Shown: positions 8,062 to 48,822 of the stretch, in pieces | Layout of the letters: the number at the start of each line of letters is the position of its first letter | Position numbering within the stretch: the stretch's first letter is position 1 | IMG/VR virus record: IMGVR_UViG_2541047788_000006 | DNA from: a virus | Taxonomy: Duplodnaviria; Heunggongvirae; Uroviricota; Caudoviricetes | DNA: 48,822 nt | Direction: 5' to 3' (one strand) | The notes under the pieces: model-generated | The model's database searches: none | Seen by the model: the letters and a program-made list of their open reading frames with translations, nothing else | Told to the model about the DNA's origin: nothing | Position numbers and translations under genes: made by a program

Positions 8062-8661
8062 TCAGAACTTATAACCGACACCCACGATGAAACCGTCAGT
8101 GCGCCAGTCGCCACTGCCGGAGCCTTCATAAGCAATATCAATGGCCACGGATTCGGTCGGGTTAAACTGCACGCCAGCTCCCCACGCCAGAGACGTGTTG
8201 CTGTGGCGACCGTCATCACTTCCGGTCAGCACGTCGTGCGTTTTCCCCTTGTTGTCAGTTACGCGGAGATAATCCCCGGAGAAAGTCGACACACGGCTGT
8301 AAGCCATACCCGCCATCGCATACGCGCTGAACCATTCATTCACGCGCACAGACGGCCCCACCATCACGCTGAACCAGCGGTTACGCACGGAATCTTCATG
8401 CCAGCGGGTATCGCTGTAACGGGTAAGCTGGCGATTCTTGTCTCCTGCATAGCTGAATGACGTCACCAGCCCCAGTGTGTCCGTAAACTCATAACGGTAT
8501 TTCACGTTAATCCCGTTCAGATCATCACTGCCGGGAACGTTCGTCCGGGCATGAAGATACCCCGCGCTCAGCGTGGACTGATGTTCAGACGCCCATGCAG
8601 GCGCACCGGATACGGCCAGACAAATGGCTGCGGACAAAATGGCGGCATAAAGTTTACGCAT
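8062..8661 (-). CDS. lom: Lom/Ail-family outer membrane beta-barrel protein
   Basis: 199-aa ORF with signal peptide ([24 protein letters not shown]) and C-terminal ...GVGYKF typical of the Ail/Lom/OmpX family; occupies the lambda lom position after J. Confidence 0.9.
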
Positions 8662-8684
8662 AATTACCTCTCGCTTTTCTGCAA

Positions 8685-8710
8685 TAAAAAAGGCGTCATT
8701 TCTGACGCCC
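8685..8710 (-). terminator. rho-independent terminator between J and lom
   Basis: Minus-strand stem GGCGTCA / TGACGCC with 4-nt loop followed by UUUUUUAUU. Confidence 0.55.
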
Positions 8711-8727
8711 GTTCTGGGTTATAAAAT

Positions 8728-12129
<3,402 letters not shown>

Positions 12130-37467: not shown

Positions 37468-38662
<1,195 letters not shown>

Positions 38663-40224
38663 CTAGAGCGTGCGCTTAGGCTGTGTTGTTTTTTTCGAAA
38701 GAATACTGATTTCAGGGATGAATTTGATCAGCTTTCGGCACATCTACTAGCAGAGTATGAACGTACCAGAGAACAAGGCGATTCACCTTATCCGCTGCGA
38801 CTCCTGCAACTCGATATCGACTGTAAAGTGAGTGAGCCATCTTTTATTGCCCAGGAACTCCTGTTTCTGACAAAAAACTATCTGGCTCAAAAATTATTTT
38901 CATTTGCCGTCGATGCCTGTAAAACCGCAATCACGATTGCGAATAGGTGCTGTGACAGAGATACACAGTTTGAATTCTGGCGGCTTCTTGCCGATACACA
39001 TCTGGAAGAGTCAAAATTCCAAGATGGCGGTATGATTTCGGCAGCCTGCATGCAGAATGCTATTGAAGCACTGGCTAATATTCCAGGAACCCGAATAGAA
39101 CGTCTTGCGCTGTATGAAGAAATGCGTGATTACCAAATCGAATCCCGTCACCAGATGTCTATCCTTCAGTCTCCCCCTCAAGATATTAGTGAGATTGTCC
39201 ATCAAGCCAAGAGTCGGGTAGTCGGAAGAGATATGTTTGATATGGTTTTCAGACTTGCGATGCTGGTCTGTCGGCCAACCAGCATTGAGAGACTTAAGGC
39301 TCAAGCAATAGAACAAAAGGCCAACAGCATAGCTTGGATGTTTGGATCAACACATATTGATCATGAGGGAATGACACTTGCTCGCATACCCGCAGGATTG
39401 GGGATTGATGATGCAAATGGGGCAGTTATTTGGCCCATAATGATGACGAGAATGCGTATCGACCATGAGTTGGCAGTAGCTGGGCAAATTATTCCTGCTA
39501 CAGATGAGATCACAATGAAATATCCAATCTCGGAGGCGTTTTTTCGCGATATGTTCATCAATCATCCCTTCATCCCGTTTGGGCATGAAGAGTTTTTCAT
39601 CAAGGGTATGGTTTGCGGTTTCAATGGAGATTTTATGACGGCATGCCACGTGTTGATTCCCCAGATCGAAAATAGTCTGAGATATGTGGCTAAAATTAAA
39701 GGTGAGGAACCATCGCAGCTTCACGGGGACGGTTCGCAAGAGCGAAATGGACTCAAGGGATTACTAGATAATCCACTGATTATTGAAGCTTTCGGCGTAG
39801 ACATAATTGGCAATCTTCAGGCCTTACTGGTAGATAAAATCTATGGTGATTTACGAAATCAACTAGCTCACGGATATGTGCCTGCCGGTTACTACAATCA
39901 ACCTCCCTGCATTTTTGCATGGTGGCTTGTATTGCACATTCTAATGAACCCTACGGCGAGATACTGGCAAGCCACTTATGGCCAAGAGAGTGAGGCTCAG
40001 ACTTAAAGTGAATAAGTTTACGAAGTTGGCACTTCCGGATGCATGTCCATATGAGTTGAGGCGATTTGGTTAATAAGGTTGAGTGCTGCTGAAATTATTC
40101 GATGTCCGCTTTTGGCACAAAGCGGACAACCACGCCAGATCTACCCTGTGCCATGAAAAATGAGAATGTCAATTCACTCCTGAACTAATGCTTTTTAATC
40201 TAGTAACGTCTAAAATACCTAACA

Positions 40225-43179: not shown

Positions 43180-43755
43180 ATGGATTTCGACACAATCATG
43201 GAAAAGGCTTACGAAGAATACTTCGAAGGCCTTGCCGAAGGCGAAGAAGCTCTCAGCTTCAGTGAGTTTAAACAGGCACTCAGAATAAGAATGCGCTCTC
43301 ACAATGACGCGGAGCACAAATATGAGAAGCAAAATCAGACCGCAGAAAATTTTGTTCTGGAACCCGGAGAAACGCTTTTCAAAATTCCCGTTACGTGCCC
43401 CATTTGCGGTTTTACATCAGAAGAACTTGACGACTCCTGTAACAATCAGGAAACAACCAAGTATGTCGAAGATGATACCGAGTGCGCACGAAGAACGATT
43501 ATATCCACGAGTCCAAACTCCAGGACCAATAAATCTCACTTTGAGAGGGTGATTAATCCACTCCCCCAAACCAATAAAAAAGATGCCGGAGGACAAAAAA
43601 ACCAATGGAACAACGGGATATCTGTCAAAAAAAGACGTTCCATTAAAGACAAACAACGCAGCGCCAACAACTGTAAGCGCTTTATACCAGTAATCAATTT
43701 TCATGTTCTTAAGCGGATTTATTGGTGGTTGCGACATTGCTTAATGAATCCTTAA
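43180..43755 (+). CDS. YdfB/YdfC-like protein (single 191-aa ORF)
   Basis: Starts MDFDTIMEKAYEEYFEGLAEGEE...; contains CPICGF; TGATATG junction with ydfA. Confidence 0.5.
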   Translation: MDFDTIMEKAYEEYFEGLAEGEEALSFSEFKQALRIRMRSHNDAEHKYEKQNQTAENFVLEPGETLFKIPVTCPICGFTSEELDDSCNNQETTKYVEDDTECARRTIISTSPNSRTNKSHFERVINPLPQTNKKDAGGQKNQWNNGISVKKRRSIKDKQRSANNCKRFIPVINFHVLKRIYWWLRHCLMNP

Positions 43756-44014: not shown

Positions 44015-44067
44015 TTTCTGGTGACGTTTGGCGGTATCAGTTTTACTCCGTGACTGCTCTGCCGCCG
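44015..44067 (+). ncRNA. dicF: DicF small RNA (ftsZ-targeting sRNA)
   Basis: Sequence TTTCTGGTGACGTTTGGCGGTATCAGTTTTACTCCGTGACTGCTCTGCCGCC matches the 53-nt DicF sRNA as recalled; followed by GTTTTT; located just upstream of dicB. Confidence 0.8.
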
Positions 44068-44241: not shown

Positions 44242-44430
44242 ATGAAAACGTTATTACCAAACGTTAATACGTCTGAAGGTTGTTTTGAAATTGGTGTCAC
44301 TATCAGTAACCCTGTATTTACTGAAGATGCCATTAACAAGAGAAAACAAGAACGGGAGCTATTAAATAAAATATGCATTGTTTCAATGCTGGCTCGTTTA
44401 CGTCTGATGCCAAAAGGATGTGCACAATGA
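44242..44430 (+). CDS. dicB: cell division inhibitor DicB (MinC-dependent)
   Basis: 62 aa MKTLLPNVNTSEGCFEIGVTISNPVFTEDAINKRKQERELLNKICIVSMLARLRLMPKGCAQ. Confidence 0.9.
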   Translation: MKTLLPNVNTSEGCFEIGVTISNPVFTEDAINKRKQERELLNKICIVSMLARLRLMPKGCAQ

Positions 44431-44618
44431 ATTCAGCATTTGCGCTTGTTCTGACAGTTTTTCTTGTTTCCGGAGAGCCAGTTGATATTGCAGTCAGTGT
44501 TCACAGGACAATGCAGGAGTGTATGACTGCAGCAACCGAACAGAAAATTCCCGGTAACTGTTACCCGGTCGATAAAGTTATTCACCAGTATAATATCGAA
44601 ATCCCGGCAGGTCTTTAA
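44427..44618 (+). CDS. ydfD: small membrane protein YdfD
   Basis: 63 aa MNSAFALVLTVFLVSGEPVDIAVSVHRTMQECMTAATEQKIPGNCYPVDKVIHQYNIEIPAGL; ATGA overlap with dicB. Confidence 0.8.
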   Translation: MNSAFALVLTVFLVSGEPVDIAVSVHRTMQECMTAATEQKIPGNCYPVDKVIHQYNIEIPAGL

Positions 44619-44711
44619 AACAGTTCCGTAATAAATATCCGGTTTCATTCTTATATGCCAGCAATGGCAGGGATTTGTTCATCCTTAAATCTGTCATGAG
44701 GTTAAAACAAA

Positions 44712-47183
44712 ATGAGTAAAGTCTTTATTTGCGCCGCTATTCCTGACGAACTGGCAACAAGGGAAGAAGGCGCTGTGGCTGTAGCCACAGCCATTGAAGC
44801 TGGCGACGAACGCCGTGCTCGAGCAAAATTTCACTGGCAATTCCTGGAACATTATCCGGCTGCTCAGGACTGCGCTTATAAATTTATTGTCTGCGAGGAT
44901 AAACCTGGCATACCCCGCCCTGCCCTCGATTCATGGGATGCTGAATATATGCAGGAAAACCGCTGGGATGAGGAGTCTGCTTCTTTTGTCCCGGTTGAGA
45001 CTGAATCCGATCCGATGAACGTCACTTTTGACAAGCTGGCCCCTGAAGTACAGAACGCTGTCATGGTTAAGTTCGACACATGTGAAAACATCACCGTTGA
45101 TATGGTTATTAGCGCACAGGAATTGTTGCAGGAAGACATGGCAACATTCGACGGACATATCGTTGAAGCGTTGATGAAAATGCCAGAAGTTAACGCCATG
45201 TATCCGGAGCTTAAGTTGCACGCCATTGGGTGGGTTAAGCATAAATGTATTCCTGGTGCTAAATGGCCCGAAATTCAGGCAGAGATGCGCATCTGGAAAA
45301 AACGTCGCGAAGGTGAACGCAAGGAAACCGGAAAATACACGTCTGTTGTTGATCTCGCCCGCGCCAGAGCCAATCAACAGTACACTGAAAATTCAACAGG
45401 AAAAATCAGCCCGGTCATTGCTGCCATTCATCGCGAATACAAGCAGACATGGAAAACACTGGATGACGAACTGGCCTACGCTCTCTGGCCTGGTGATGTG
45501 GATGCCGGAAACATTGACGGCAGCATCCATCGCTGGGCAAAAAATGAAGTTATCGATAACGACCGCGAAGACTGGAAGCGTATCTCGGCATCAATGCGCA
45601 AACAGCCTGATGCCCTTCGCTACGACCGCCAAACTATTTTTGGCCTTGTCCGTGAACGTCCGATCGACATTCACAAAGATCCCGTAGCACTGAACAAATA
45701 TATCTGCGAATACCTGACGACAAAGGGCGTGTTTGAGAATGAAGAAACAGACCTGGGCACTGTTGATGTTCTCCAGTCATCAGAAACACAAACTGATGCA
45801 GTGGAAACTGAGGTATCTGATATCCCAAAAAATGAAACCGCGCCGGAAGCTGAACCATCTGTAGAGCGTGAGGGGCCGTTCTATTTCCTCTTCGCAGATA
45901 AGGACGGAGAAAAATACGGTCGCGCAAACAAACTTTCTGGTCTGGATAAGGCACTGGCTGCTGGCGCCACTGAAATCACAAAAGAAGAATATTTTGCCCG
46001 AAAAAATGGCACATACACGGGCTTACCGCAAAATGTAGATACCGCTGAAGATTCAGAACAACCAGAGCCGATAAAAGTTACCGCTGACGAAGTAAACAAA
46101 ATTATGCAGGCAGCCAATATCATCCAGCCTGACGCCGATAAGTTGCTTGCTGCATCACGTGGTGAATTTGTTGAAGGGATTAGTGACCCGAATGATCCGA
46201 AATGGGTTAAGGGGATCCAGACCCGCGATTCTGTGAACCAGAACCAGCATGAATCGGAACGGAACTACCAAAAAGCGGAACAAAACAGCCCAAATGCGTT
46301 ACAAAACGAGCCAGAAACGAAACAGCCTGAATCAGTGGCGCAACAGGAAGTGGAAAAAGTCTGCACCGCCTGCGGTCAGACCGGCGGCGGCAACTGCCCT
46401 GATTGTGGCGCGGTAATGGGCGACGCAACATACCAGGAAACATTCGATGAAGAGTATCAGGTTGAAGTTCAGGAAGATGATCCGGAGAAAATGGAAGGCG
46501 CTGAACATCCACACAAGGAGAACACTGGCGGCAATCAGCATCACGATAGCGATAATGAAACTGGCGAGACGGCAGATCACTCAATTAAGGTGAACGGTCA
46601 TCACGAAATCACATCCACCAGCAGGACGTGTGACCATCTAATGATCGACCTTGAAACCATGGGAAAAAATCCTGATGCCCCGATCATCTCAATAGGTGCA
46701 ATATTTTTCGATCCGCAAACCGGAGATATGGGACCGGAATTTATTAAGACTATCGATCTGGAAACTGCTGGCGGAGTCATTGATCGGGACACCATTAAAT
46801 GGTGGTTTAAGCAATCACGCGAAGCGCAATCTGCCATTATGACCGATGAAATCCCGTTAGATGATGCACTGTTACAATTGCGGGAATTTATCGACGAAAA
46901 CTCCGGTGAATTTTTTGTTCAGGTCTGGGGAAATGGAGCCAACTTCGACAACACGATTTTGCGCCGTTCATACGAACGGCAGGGGATCCCCTGCCCGTGG
47001 CGTTACTACAACGATCGCGATGTACGCACAATCGTTGAGCTGGGGAAAGCCATAGACTTCGATGCCAGAACGGCTATTCAATTCGAAGGTGAGCGCCATA
47101 ATGCACTTGATGACGCCCGTTACCAGGCAAAATACGTTTCAGTTATCTGGCAAAAACTGATCCCGAGTCAGGCTGATTCTTAA
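44712..47183 (+). CDS. ydfE: large early-region protein with C-terminal DnaQ-like (DEDDh) 3'-5' exonuclease domain
   Basis: 823 aa; C-terminal ~190 aa contains MIDLETMG (Exo I), a middle acidic motif, and HNALDDARYQAKY (Exo III with His); upstream CxxC...CxxC zinc-ribbon (CTACGQTGGGNCPDCG); occupies the exo/recombination position upstream of xis-int. Confidence 0.75.
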   Translation: MSKVFICAAIPDELATREEGAVAVATAIEAGDERRARAKFHWQFLEHYPAAQDCAYKFIVCEDKPGIPRPALDSWDAEYMQENRWDEESASFVPVETESDPMNVTFDKLAPEVQNAVMVKFDTCENITVDMVISAQELLQEDMATFDGHIVEALMKMPEVNAMYPELKLHAIGWVKHKCIPGAKWPEIQAEMRIWKKRREGERKETGKYTSVVDLARARANQQYTENSTGKISPVIAAIHREYKQTWKTLDDELAYALWPGDVDAGNIDGSIHRWAKNEVIDNDREDWKRISASMRKQPDALRYDRQTIFGLVRERPIDIHKDPVALNKYICEYLTTKGVFENEETDLGTVDVLQSSETQTDAVETEVSDIPKNETAPEAEPSVEREGPFYFLFADKDGEKYGRANKLSGLDKALAAGATEITKEEYFARKNGTYTGLPQNVDTAEDSEQPEPIKVTADEVNKIMQAANIIQPDADKLLAASRGEFVEGISDPNDPKWVKGIQTRDSVNQNQHESERNYQKAEQNSPNALQNEPETKQPESVAQQEVEKVCTACGQTGGGNCPDCGAVMGDATYQETFDEEYQVEVQEDDPEKMEGAEHPHKENTGGNQHHDSDNETGETADHSIKVNGHHEITSTSRTCDHLMIDLETMGKNPDAPIISIGAIFFDPQTGDMGPEFIKTIDLETAGGVIDRDTIKWWFKQSREAQSAIMTDEIPLDDALLQLREFIDENSGEFFVQVWGNGANFDNTILRRSYERQGIPCPWRYYNDRDVRTIVELGKAIDFDARTAIQFEGERHNALDDARYQAKYVSVIWQKLIPSQADS

Positions 47184-47255: not shown

Positions 47256-47507
47256 ATGAGCGAAGTAATCATGATTGTCTCTCCCGGCAAATGGGTATCC
47301 GAAGAGCAGTTAATTGCGCTGAAAGGAATAAAAAAAGGTACGTTAAAAAAGGCCCGGGAAAAATCGTTTATGGAAGGAAGGGAATATAAGCATGTCGCTC
47401 ATGACGGTATGCCATGGGATAACAGTCCATGCTTTTACAACCTGGAAGAAATTGATCGCTGGATTGAGCGCCAGGCATCAGCAAGACCAAGACGTCATCT
47501 TACTTGA
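47256..47507 (+). CDS. xis: excisionase-like protein
   Basis: 83-aa basic protein immediately upstream of the integrase; assignment mainly by position. Confidence 0.55.
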   Translation: MSEVIMIVSPGKWVSEEQLIALKGIKKGTLKKAREKSFMEGREYKHVAHDGMPWDNSPCFYNLEEIDRWIERQASARPRRHLT

Positions 47508-47526
47508 CTAAAAGCCACACTAACTA

Positions 47527-48822
47527 ATGAGAGAAGTTGAAATGAAATATCCGACAGGCGTGGAAAACCATGGAGGGAAATTACGTATCTGGTTTGTTTA
47601 TAAAGGCGTAAGAGTCAGGGAAAACCTGGGGGTTCCTGACACAGCAAAAAACAGGCGCGTTGCAGGTGAGCTACGCGCCTCTGTTTGTTACGCAATAAAA
47701 ACTGGTGTTTTCGACTATGCAAAACAGTTTCCCTCCTCACGCAATCTGGAAAAATTTGGTGAGGCCCGACAAGATTTAACCATAAAAGAACTGGCTGAAA
47801 AATTTCTGGCACTGAAAGAAACTGAAGTCGCAAAAACATCACTCAACACATACCGTGCCGTCATCAAAAATATCCTGAGCATAATCGGTGAAAAAAATCT
47901 TGCCTCATCGATTAATAAAGAAAAATTACTGGAGGTTCGTAAAGAGCTACTGACTGGATACCAGATCCCCAAAAGTAACTATATTGTTACACAACCAGGG
48001 AGATCGGCTGTAACTGTAAATAATTACATGACAAATCTTAACGCCGTGTTCCAGTTTGGTGTTGATAACGGTTACCTGGTAGATAACCCGTTTAAGGGGA
48101 TCTCGCCATTAAAGGAATCAAGAACCATTCCGGATCCTCTTTCGCGGGAGGAATTCATCCGTCTTATCGATGCGTGCAGAAATCAGCAAGCCAAAAATTT
48201 ATGGTGTGTTTCTGTTTATACTGGCGTTCGCCCTGGTGAGCTGTGTGCACTTGGATGGGAGGACATAGATCTGAAAAATGGAACAATGATGATCAGGAGA
48301 AATTTAGCAAAAGACCGTTTCACGGTACCAAAAACACAGGCGGGAACCAATCGGGTCATTCATCTTATTAAGCCAGCAATCGACGCTCTCCGGAGTCAGA
48401 TGACATTAACGAGACTGAGCAAAGAGCATATCATTGATGTTCACCTCAGAGAGTATGGCAGAACAGAAAAACAAAAATGCACCTTTGTTTTTCAACCTGA
48501 AGTGTCAGCGAGAGTAAAAAATTATGGTGACCATTTTACCGTTGACTCAATAAGGCAGATGTGGGACGCAGCGATAAAACGTGCCGGACTCCGCCATCGA
48601 AAATCATATCAGTCGAGACATACTTATGCCTGCTGGTCGCTGACAGCTGGTGCTAACCCGGCATTTATAGCAAACCAGATGGGCCATGCAGATGCGCAAA
48701 TGGTATTTCAGGTATACGGAAAATGGATGTCTGAAAACAATAATGCACAGGTAGCTTTGTTAAATACACAGTTAAGCGAGTTTGCCCCAACCATGCCCCA
48801 TAACGAAGCAATGAAAAATTAA
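47527..48822 (+). CDS. int: tyrosine-type phage integrase
   Basis: 431-aa ORF; C-terminal catalytic region with R...HxxR...Y pattern (SRHTYACWSL...HADAQMVFQVYGKWM); stop TAA at the window end; start may be 47542 (MKYPTG...). Confidence 0.9.
   Translation: MREVEMKYPTGVENHGGKLRIWFVYKGVRVRENLGVPDTAKNRRVAGELRASVCYAIKTGVFDYAKQFPSSRNLEKFGEARQDLTIKELAEKFLALKETEVAKTSLNTYRAVIKNILSIIGEKNLASSINKEKLLEVRKELLTGYQIPKSNYIVTQPGRSAVTVNNYMTNLNAVFQFGVDNGYLVDNPFKGISPLKESRTIPDPLSREEFIRLIDACRNQQAKNLWCVSVYTGVRPGELCALGWEDIDLKNGTMMIRRNLAKDRFTVPKTQAGTNRVIHLIKPAIDALRSQMTLTRLSKEHIIDVHLREYGRTEKQKCTFVFQPEVSARVKNYGDHFTVDSIRQMWDAAIKRAGLRHRKSYQSRHTYACWSLTAGANPAFIANQMGHADAQMVFQVYGKWMSENNNAQVALLNTQLSEFAPTMPHNEAMKN

Follow-up and report, generated by a model that had tools for sequence, protein, structure and literature searches.

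The stretch of DNA analysed here (IMG/VR virus record IMGVR_UViG_2541047788_000006; 48,822 nucleotides (nt), referred to as the window) matches the chromosome of Escherichia coli 118UI with 100% identity and carries a complete lambdoid prophage of the Qin type. This element, of ~45 kb, lies between a truncated ydfJ and rspB, the position occupied in K-12 by the defective Qin prophage, and the subject of the present analysis is its full-length ydfE-type gene, which bears the label 'exonuclease' in 118UI. The initial annotation had described a whole ydfE of 823 amino acids (aa) at this place and only a fragment of it in K-12. Both statements stand: the open reading frame (ORF) starts with ATG and runs for 823 codons with no internal stop, and the K-12 gene (b1577), disrupted by IS2E, is a pseudogene whose first 256 aa match the YdfE of the window at every position. 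The product is acidic overall, with 154 aspartate and glutamate residues vs 89 lysine and arginine residues. The early-left operon to which the gene belongs reads repressor, ydfA, an uncharacterised ORF, the DicF small RNA (sRNA), dicB, ydfD, ydfE, xis and int, ydfE being its final cargo gene. In K-12, the dicB promoter has been reported to transcribe dicB-ydfD-ydfE and to be repressed by DicA (bioRxiv 10.1101/2024.09.21.614188), and therefore expression of ydfE is expected on induction or infection and not in the lysogen. Between ydfD and ydfE no same-strand promoter-like site was found, and the terminator-like signal was at chance level in the scanned region (8 weak matches vs 7.4 expected).

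At the catalytic end, the only domain that the Pfam search found in YdfE is the Rv2179c-like family PF16473, matched by aa 642-813 over profile positions 2-177 of 177 (E 1.6e-66, 223.8 bits vs a cut-off of 27). The C-terminal DEDDh motifs proposed in the initial annotation are in place: DLETMG supplies D646 and E648, NGANFD supplies D746 and HNALDDARY supplies H796 and D801. The residues of Exo I (DxE), Exo II (D) and Exo III (H-x4-D) are thus all present in YdfE, and they are conserved among its DEDDh-type homologues. The accompanying view that this nuclease is not of the PD-(D/E)xK type is borne out as well, since YdfE gave no Pfam match to DUF3799 or PDDEXK and no alignment to RecE 592-866. 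Among solved structures, the only relatives detected by sequence are the 8KEL/8KEN chains of T4 DexA (PMC12153337). In an AlphaFold2 (AF2) model of aa 351-823 the exonuclease domain reaches a predicted local distance difference test score (pLDDT) of ~85, and comparison of this domain with the PDB by Foldseek returned DexA 8KEL as the best match (E 1.2e-10), together with RNase T and oligoribonuclease (Orn). Sequence and model together indicate that the C-terminus of YdfE is a DEDDh exonuclease with a DnaQ/RNase-T-like fold, for which a metal-dependent 3'-5' exonuclease activity on DNA 3' ends is predicted.

The comparison with characterised members of the family reveals both likeness and difference. 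Rv2179c, the 3'-5' exoribonuclease of Mycobacterium tuberculosis after which PF16473 is named, belongs to the same Pfam family as the YdfE domain; it is a small standalone RNase, whereas YdfE is a fusion whose substrate is more likely DNA. T4 DexA and its E. coli homologue EcD share the family and the DEDDh residues with the catalytic domain of YdfE, DexA giving the best solved-structure match, but both are standalone proteins of 190-227 aa, whereas in YdfE the domain takes up the last quarter of a RecE-type protein of 823 aa. That YdfE works as an exoribonuclease, for example in the processing or turnover of operon transcripts or of host RNA, is improbable: its best Pfam family carries the name of Rv2179c, its structural neighbours include RNase T and Orn and a processed sRNA, DicF, is encoded in the same operon, but the best structural and sequence match among solved proteins is the DNase DexA and the scaffold that carries the domain is that of the DNA exonuclease RecE.

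This scaffold makes up most of the protein. By BLASTP, YdfE aa 262-625 align with K-12 RecE 278-591 (E 2e-61), and the stretch from aa 474 to 625 is 67% identical to RecE 454-591 (E 1e-65); the two proteins are nearly identical in the SDPNDPKW motif and in the zinc ribbon (C551/C554 and C562/C565, a CxxC-x7-CxxC arrangement that would be expected to bind metal). The NCBIfam RecE model (NF007259) covers YdfE aa 246-625 with an E-value of 1.8e-83, through model positions 271-602 only, and as a full-length equivalog YdfE scores 281 bits vs a cut-off of 1269. The long N-terminal region and the ribbon, for which the initial annotation had seen no obvious assignment, can consequently be assigned: aa 262-625 correspond to the non-catalytic region of RecE, and aa 1-206 to the Pfam families YdfE_N and YdfE_C. 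The similarity to RecE stops abruptly. At the DNA level it ends at nt 1867 of the ydfE gene, that is, at aa 622, and in the protein alignment RecE departs after '...ETGEVADPVI' (RecE ~591), where its nuclease domain begins according to the limits given in PMC11611040. The junction can hence be placed at YdfE aa 622-626 and RecE aa 588-592, the start of the RecE nuclease domain, and the DEDDh domain of YdfE occupies the place of the RecE PD-(D/E)xK 5'-3' nuclease. A second protein of this kind is encoded by phage vB_EcoS-640R1: 813 aa in length, it consists of RecE 50-591 (as long near-identical blocks) followed by the same DEDDh domain, and its gene lies in the context dicB-ydfD-exo-xis-int. 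By its sequence, YdfE is best described as a modular RecE-family scaffold whose nuclease has been swapped at a domain boundary, and not as a new protein.

The N-terminal head departs from that of RecE. The Pfam search of YdfE found no N-terminal Exonuc_VIII (PF06630), and YdfE_N and YdfE_C stand in its place; these two families were assigned through precomputed matches on homologues 83-99% identical over aa 1-350, not by scoring YdfE itself. An AF2 model of aa 1-350, built from an alignment of 21 sequences (22-56% identity), has a mean pLDDT of 87.5 and consists of an alpha/beta domain (aa 1-100), a helical domain (aa 105-206), a disordered linker (aa 207-244) and a second helical domain (aa 245-345), in which L250 is invariant throughout the 21 sequences. 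From aa 346 to 640 the model is mostly of low confidence or disordered, with the exception of a mini-domain at aa 386-432 that is missing from the 640R1 protein and, as an alignment gap, from K-12 RecE. No function could be assigned to this mini-domain despite very strong purifying selection. The low confidence of the model over the tether and the ribbon precludes any statement on how the ribbon packs.

Table 1. Features of the ydfE locus, with positions in the window.
Feature	Position (nt)	Strand	Basis or remark
Full-length ydfE-type gene, 823 aa (PGAP 'exonuclease', WP_000048333.1)	44712..47183	+	ORF list, annotation, PHROG 2082 end-to-end match
Shine-Dalgarno GAGG	44699..44702	+	9 nt 5' of the ydfE ATG
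Alpha/beta domain, aa 1-100, Pfam YdfE_N PF27430	44712..45011	+	
Helical domain, aa 105-206, probably Pfam YdfE_C PF27432	45024..45329	+	AF2, homologue Pfam matches, dN/dS 0.06-0.10
Helical domain common to RecE (~278-351) and all family members, aa 245-345	45444..45746	+	BLASTP, family search, AF2 model
Beta/alpha mini-domain, aa 386-432 (GPFYFLFADKDGEKYGRANKL...)	45867..46007	+	AF2 pLDDT ~80; dN/dS 0.03-0.05
Acidic, mostly disordered tether, aa 455-625, homologous to RecE 454-591	46074..46586	+	BLASTP, alignments, AF2
Conserved motif LLAASRGEFVEGISDPNDPKWVKGIQTRD inside the tether, aa 478-506	46143-46229	+	
CxxC-x7-CxxC zinc ribbon, aa 551-565	46362..46406	+	nearly identical to RecE ribbon; dN/dS 0.09-0.14
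DexA/Rv2179c-type DEDDh 3'-5' exonuclease domain (predicted), aa 641-820 (D646, E648, D746, H796, D801)	46632..47171	+	PF16473 E 1.6e-66; 8KEL by sequence and Foldseek
DicF sRNA, same early-left operon, upstream of dicB as in K-12 Qin	44016..44067	+	Rfam RF00039, 72.5 bits
dicB	44242-44430	+	immediately upstream of ydfE, same operon (with ydfD, 44242..44618)
ydfD	44427-44618	+	immediately upstream of ydfE, same operon
Excisionase	47256-47507	+	PF06806, E 1.6e-31; downstream of ydfE
Integrase	47527 onward	+	after the excisionase; window end (48822) cuts the gene

Selection on the separate modules was estimated as the ratio of non-synonymous to synonymous substitution rates (dN/dS) against the gene copies of mEp460 and Evi. 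Each folded N-terminal or middle module and the zinc ribbon gave values of 0.03-0.17, the exonuclease domain 0.16-0.38 and the two acidic linkers 0.7-0.96. Values so far below 1 in the folded modules imply that every module of YdfE is maintained, and the ORF is a real gene and not a chance ORF. For this reason it is extremely unlikely that ydfE is a decaying, non-functional remnant of the prophage, an explanation that would find its arguments in the K-12 pseudogene, in many deletion variants and in the copy of PPompW_EH1846 (L123:1501-3968, a prophage of the O26 type of enterohaemorrhagic E. coli), which is annotated as a frameshifted pseudogene. In the window the ORF is intact and the catalytic residues are conserved, and the gene is also present in the isolated phages HannyBb, PhiR42_1, Tritos and mEp460.

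A search with aa 1-350 among 1.84 billion representative proteins recovered only 168 relatives, and the YdfE family is therefore narrow. Within these 168 representatives the architectures are combinatorial: a head of either YdfE_N/C or RecE PF06630 is followed by the common helical domain, and the C-terminus is DEDDh, RecE-type/DUF3799 PD-(D/E)xK or devoid of any recognisable nuclease, as in P0126, P0133 and P0139. The latter probably correspond to the 'RecE-2' proteins without a nuclease domain mentioned in PMC12315714, a difference from YdfE, which has one. In P0133 and P0139 an overlapping Sipho_Gp157 gene comes next (L119:7223-7717 and L120:7367-7927), which suggests a third type of cassette joined to the YdfE/RecE scaffold. 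The closest known counterpart of YdfE is RecE (exonuclease VIII) of the K-12 Rac prophage, which occupies the same operon position, after kil-type genes and before xis-int, and follows the same design of a long non-catalytic N-terminal region with a C-terminal exonuclease. They differ in the first ~260 aa (PF06630 in RecE, YdfE_N/YdfE_C in YdfE), in the mini-domain that is extra in YdfE and in the nuclease, which is PD-(D/E)xK and 5'-3' in RecE but DEDDh and presumably 3'-5' in YdfE. Likewise, RecE has a RecT partner and YdfE is without one.

This last difference extends to the whole family. Members with a PD-(D/E)xK domain are followed by an overlapping recT in five of five cases (Rac, phage 666R9, P0128, P0222 and P0173). 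In the DEDDh members, for which downstream genes were compared at more than 85 loci, xis-int comes directly next and RecT was present in none of 80 IMG/VR loci; the same succession of DEDDh gene and xis-int is found in phages Tritos, 640R1, mEp460, Evi and PPompW and in three distant enterobacterial members. RecT thus travels with the PD-(D/E)xK cassette only. In the window, xis and int (47256..48822) sit where Rac has recT, in agreement with the earlier remark that no RecT/Bet-like gene follows ydfE. The annotation of the ~45-kb prophage contains no gene of the RecT, Bet or Erf type and none for Redbeta, Sak or Sak4, and no such gene is adjacent to ydfE. Both attributes of a two-component recombinase are consequently missing from YdfE, which has no annealase neighbour and a catalytic domain predicted to be of the 3'-5' class. 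The ~640 non-catalytic residues, kept under purifying selection, might be thought to harbour an unrecognised annealase that would make YdfE a self-contained recombinase; as no annealase fold was found in the N-terminus, we consider this very improbable.

A further indication of how the prophage may recombine comes from the distribution of Chi sites (GCTGGTGG). The window contains nine of them (25934-46622) vs 1.65 +/- 1.34 expected, a number reached in 0 of 100 shuffles. Seven of the nine are on the minus strand, which is the coding strand of the late genes and the top strand of the virion, and two are on the bottom strand; one site (46615-46622) falls within ydfE itself, just before the DEDDh domain. 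It has been shown that lambdoid phages without a RecBCD inhibitor are rich in Chi, and they have been proposed to use the host RecBCD (Zheng, Casjens, Davidson, Amundsen, Smith, Genome Res 2025, PMC12315714). The same study distinguishes 13 types of Rec module and records the occurrence of DnaQ-like 3'-5' nucleases among those of lambdoid phages; its 'Tritos' type consists of a nuclease only, without annealase and without anti-RecBCD protein, and has Chi distributions of 21/6 to 7/2. The Tritos gene is 99.0% identical to the ydfE of the window over its full length and lies in the same dicF-dicB-ydfD-exo-xis-int order, and the 7/2 distribution of the window is inside the published range. The Tritos-type module and the locus described here are the same entity, in this case as a prophage, a match in gene identity, gene order, Chi and the lack of annealase and anti-RecBCD protein; the main text of PMC12315714 does not state the type of the Tritos nuclease.

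Considering these data, the proposal that we favour, at about even chances of being right, is that YdfE combines a RecE-type scaffold with a DexA-like 3'-5' exonuclease and is accessory to host recombination instead of being half of an exonuclease-annealase recombinase. The lack of an annealase, the lack of a RecBCD inhibitor and the richness in Chi imply that recombination is probably left to the host RecBCD and RecA. According to this proposal, YdfE would be produced during lytic growth from the repressor-controlled, pL-like dicB operon, its RecE-type scaffold would bring the exonuclease to the target and the nuclease would act there on DNA 3' ends in a metal-dependent manner. With phage recombination probably outsourced to RecBCD and RecA, YdfE would serve as an accessory end-processing factor and, more speculatively, might trim 3' tails or flaps to leave ends usable by RecBCD or by a polymerase. 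A YdfE with a DexA-like exonuclease is biochemically plausible, its biological role being a matter of inference. Several observations weigh against this proposal. Exonucleases of the 3'-5' DnaQ type usually inhibit recombination and do not promote it (PMC12315714). In the homologue P0232 (752 aa) two catalytic residues are replaced (E to K in DLKTMG and D to A in SFAN) while the remaining domain is conserved, which may make it a catalytically dead variant; this loss and the members lacking a recognisable nuclease imply that the scaffold may have a nuclease-independent function. In addition, the exoribonuclease activity of Rv2179c makes RNA a possible substrate of YdfE, the zinc-ribbon region is modelled by AF2 only at low confidence and the N-terminal folds yielded no functional clue.

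The importance of the system lies in the fact that nucleases of opposite polarity are found on a single type of scaffold, with RecT tracking only one of them and the 3'-5' version found in Chi-rich phages. This constitutes a natural experiment on the role of the RecE N-terminal region and on the recombination-dependent growth of lambdoid phages that have neither annealase nor RecBCD inhibitor. With a portable scaffold and a recT that strictly follows the type of nuclease, the long-unexplained role of the RecE N-terminus becomes testable, and since the gene is present in isolated phages (Tritos, mEp460 and HannyBb), deletions and domain swaps are directly feasible. A broader and tentative suggestion, to which we attach a rather low probability, is that the ~600-residue RecE-type N-terminal region is a portable targeting scaffold that brings a PD-(D/E)xK 5'-3' nuclease, a DEDDh 3'-5' nuclease or no effector to one and the same target. 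The DEDDh version, in Chi-rich phages without annealase and Gam, would then be an adaptor to the host RecBCD/RecA or else a new anti-defence or exclusion nuclease; in both cases strand-annealing recombination would not be the defining trait of the family.

The exclusion function has a precedent within the DexA family. EcD has been shown to degrade T4 DNA and to protect cells, and among bacterial DexA homologues those of Escherichia form the largest fraction (PMC12153337), a count that is probably made up mostly of this prophage gene. By analogy, YdfE could be an 'HREX'-type nuclease with which the prophage provides defence or excludes superinfecting phages, sparing unmodified host DNA and degrading the 5-hydroxymethylcytosine (5hmC) DNA of T-even phages. 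A standalone EcD-like protein of 189 aa, found via the forward primer of that paper, is 37% identical to YdfE aa 644-816 (E 8e-34). YdfE is not EcD itself, as the EcD primers begin MIDTET and match this standalone protein. Moreover, EcD is ~190 aa long and not a RecE-type fusion, and two residues singled out in that study differ: A78 of EcD (equivalent to D90 of DexA), linked to a dimer-only state, is D718 in YdfE, and the Trp linked to 5hmC recognition (W152 equivalent) is Tyr766; for D169, which HREX-type enzymes would likewise retain, the alignment gave no counterpart. Taking into account also that ydfE lies in a repressor-controlled lytic operon, at the Rec-module position beside xis-int, this function is unlikely. 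A profile search of PADLOC-DB v2 with YdfE returned 0 families at E <= 0.01, and YdfE was accordingly rejected as a member of a known or candidate defence system.

The opposite role, that of an anti-defence effector destroying nucleic acids of host immunity such as retron multicopy single-stranded DNA, reverse-transcriptase cDNA or signalling oligonucleotides, would suit an early-operon gene whose fold also resembles RNase T and oligoribonuclease. A scaffold joined to nucleases of opposite polarity fits the destruction of a target better than the making of 3' tails for annealing, and RecE is discussed together with retron systems in bioRxiv 10.1101/2020.06.22.160242. We nevertheless regard an anti-defence role as decidedly unlikely, because YdfE resembles no characterised anti-defence protein, the nearest relatives of its catalytic domain by sequence are DNases (DexA and EcD) and recT strictly accompanies the PD-(D/E)xK members, a coupling that speaks for DNA recombination as the ancestral setting.

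Regarding its occurrence, the rarity of full-length ydfE that the initial annotation had implied does not hold. Copies with at least 80% coverage are found in 3537 of 5426 complete E. coli genomes (65%) and the gene is carried by plaque-forming phages; PHROG 2082 matches YdfE end to end, and the nuclease-only module is described in PMC12315714. Full-length ydfE is therefore abundant, already catalogued and described as a nuclease-only module class, and a literature search on 'ydfE' found no functional study. Many records (ON470612, OV696610, PV340562 and others) name DEDDh-type members 'exodeoxyribonuclease VIII'. This label is misleading because such members lack the RecE nuclease domain; it implies a 5'-3' RecE activity that YdfE, to judge by its sequence, almost certainly lacks. 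Several records of Stx2a-converting phages contain the same 90.5%-identical gene as PPompW_EH1846.

Other features of the prophage were also observed. A gene flanked by hokD and the replication genes (38219-40006(+); L001:2508-4295) encodes a DUF4209 protein of 595 aa; given its match to PDC-S39 (E 8.4e-103), a candidate defence family of PADLOC, this protein is likely to be a prophage-borne defence 'moron'. Upstream of dicB, a 191-aa ORF (43180-43755(+)) annotated as hypothetical replaces the K-12 ydfB/ydfC; it has a CPICGF motif and no Pfam match, and is overlapped on the opposite strand by a hydrophobic ORF of 106 aa (43417-43737). Finally, an IS200C transposase gene (~8606-9064(-)) is inserted between the tail-fibre and lom-like genes, and the prophage, complete in other respects, thus has at least one insertion sequence.

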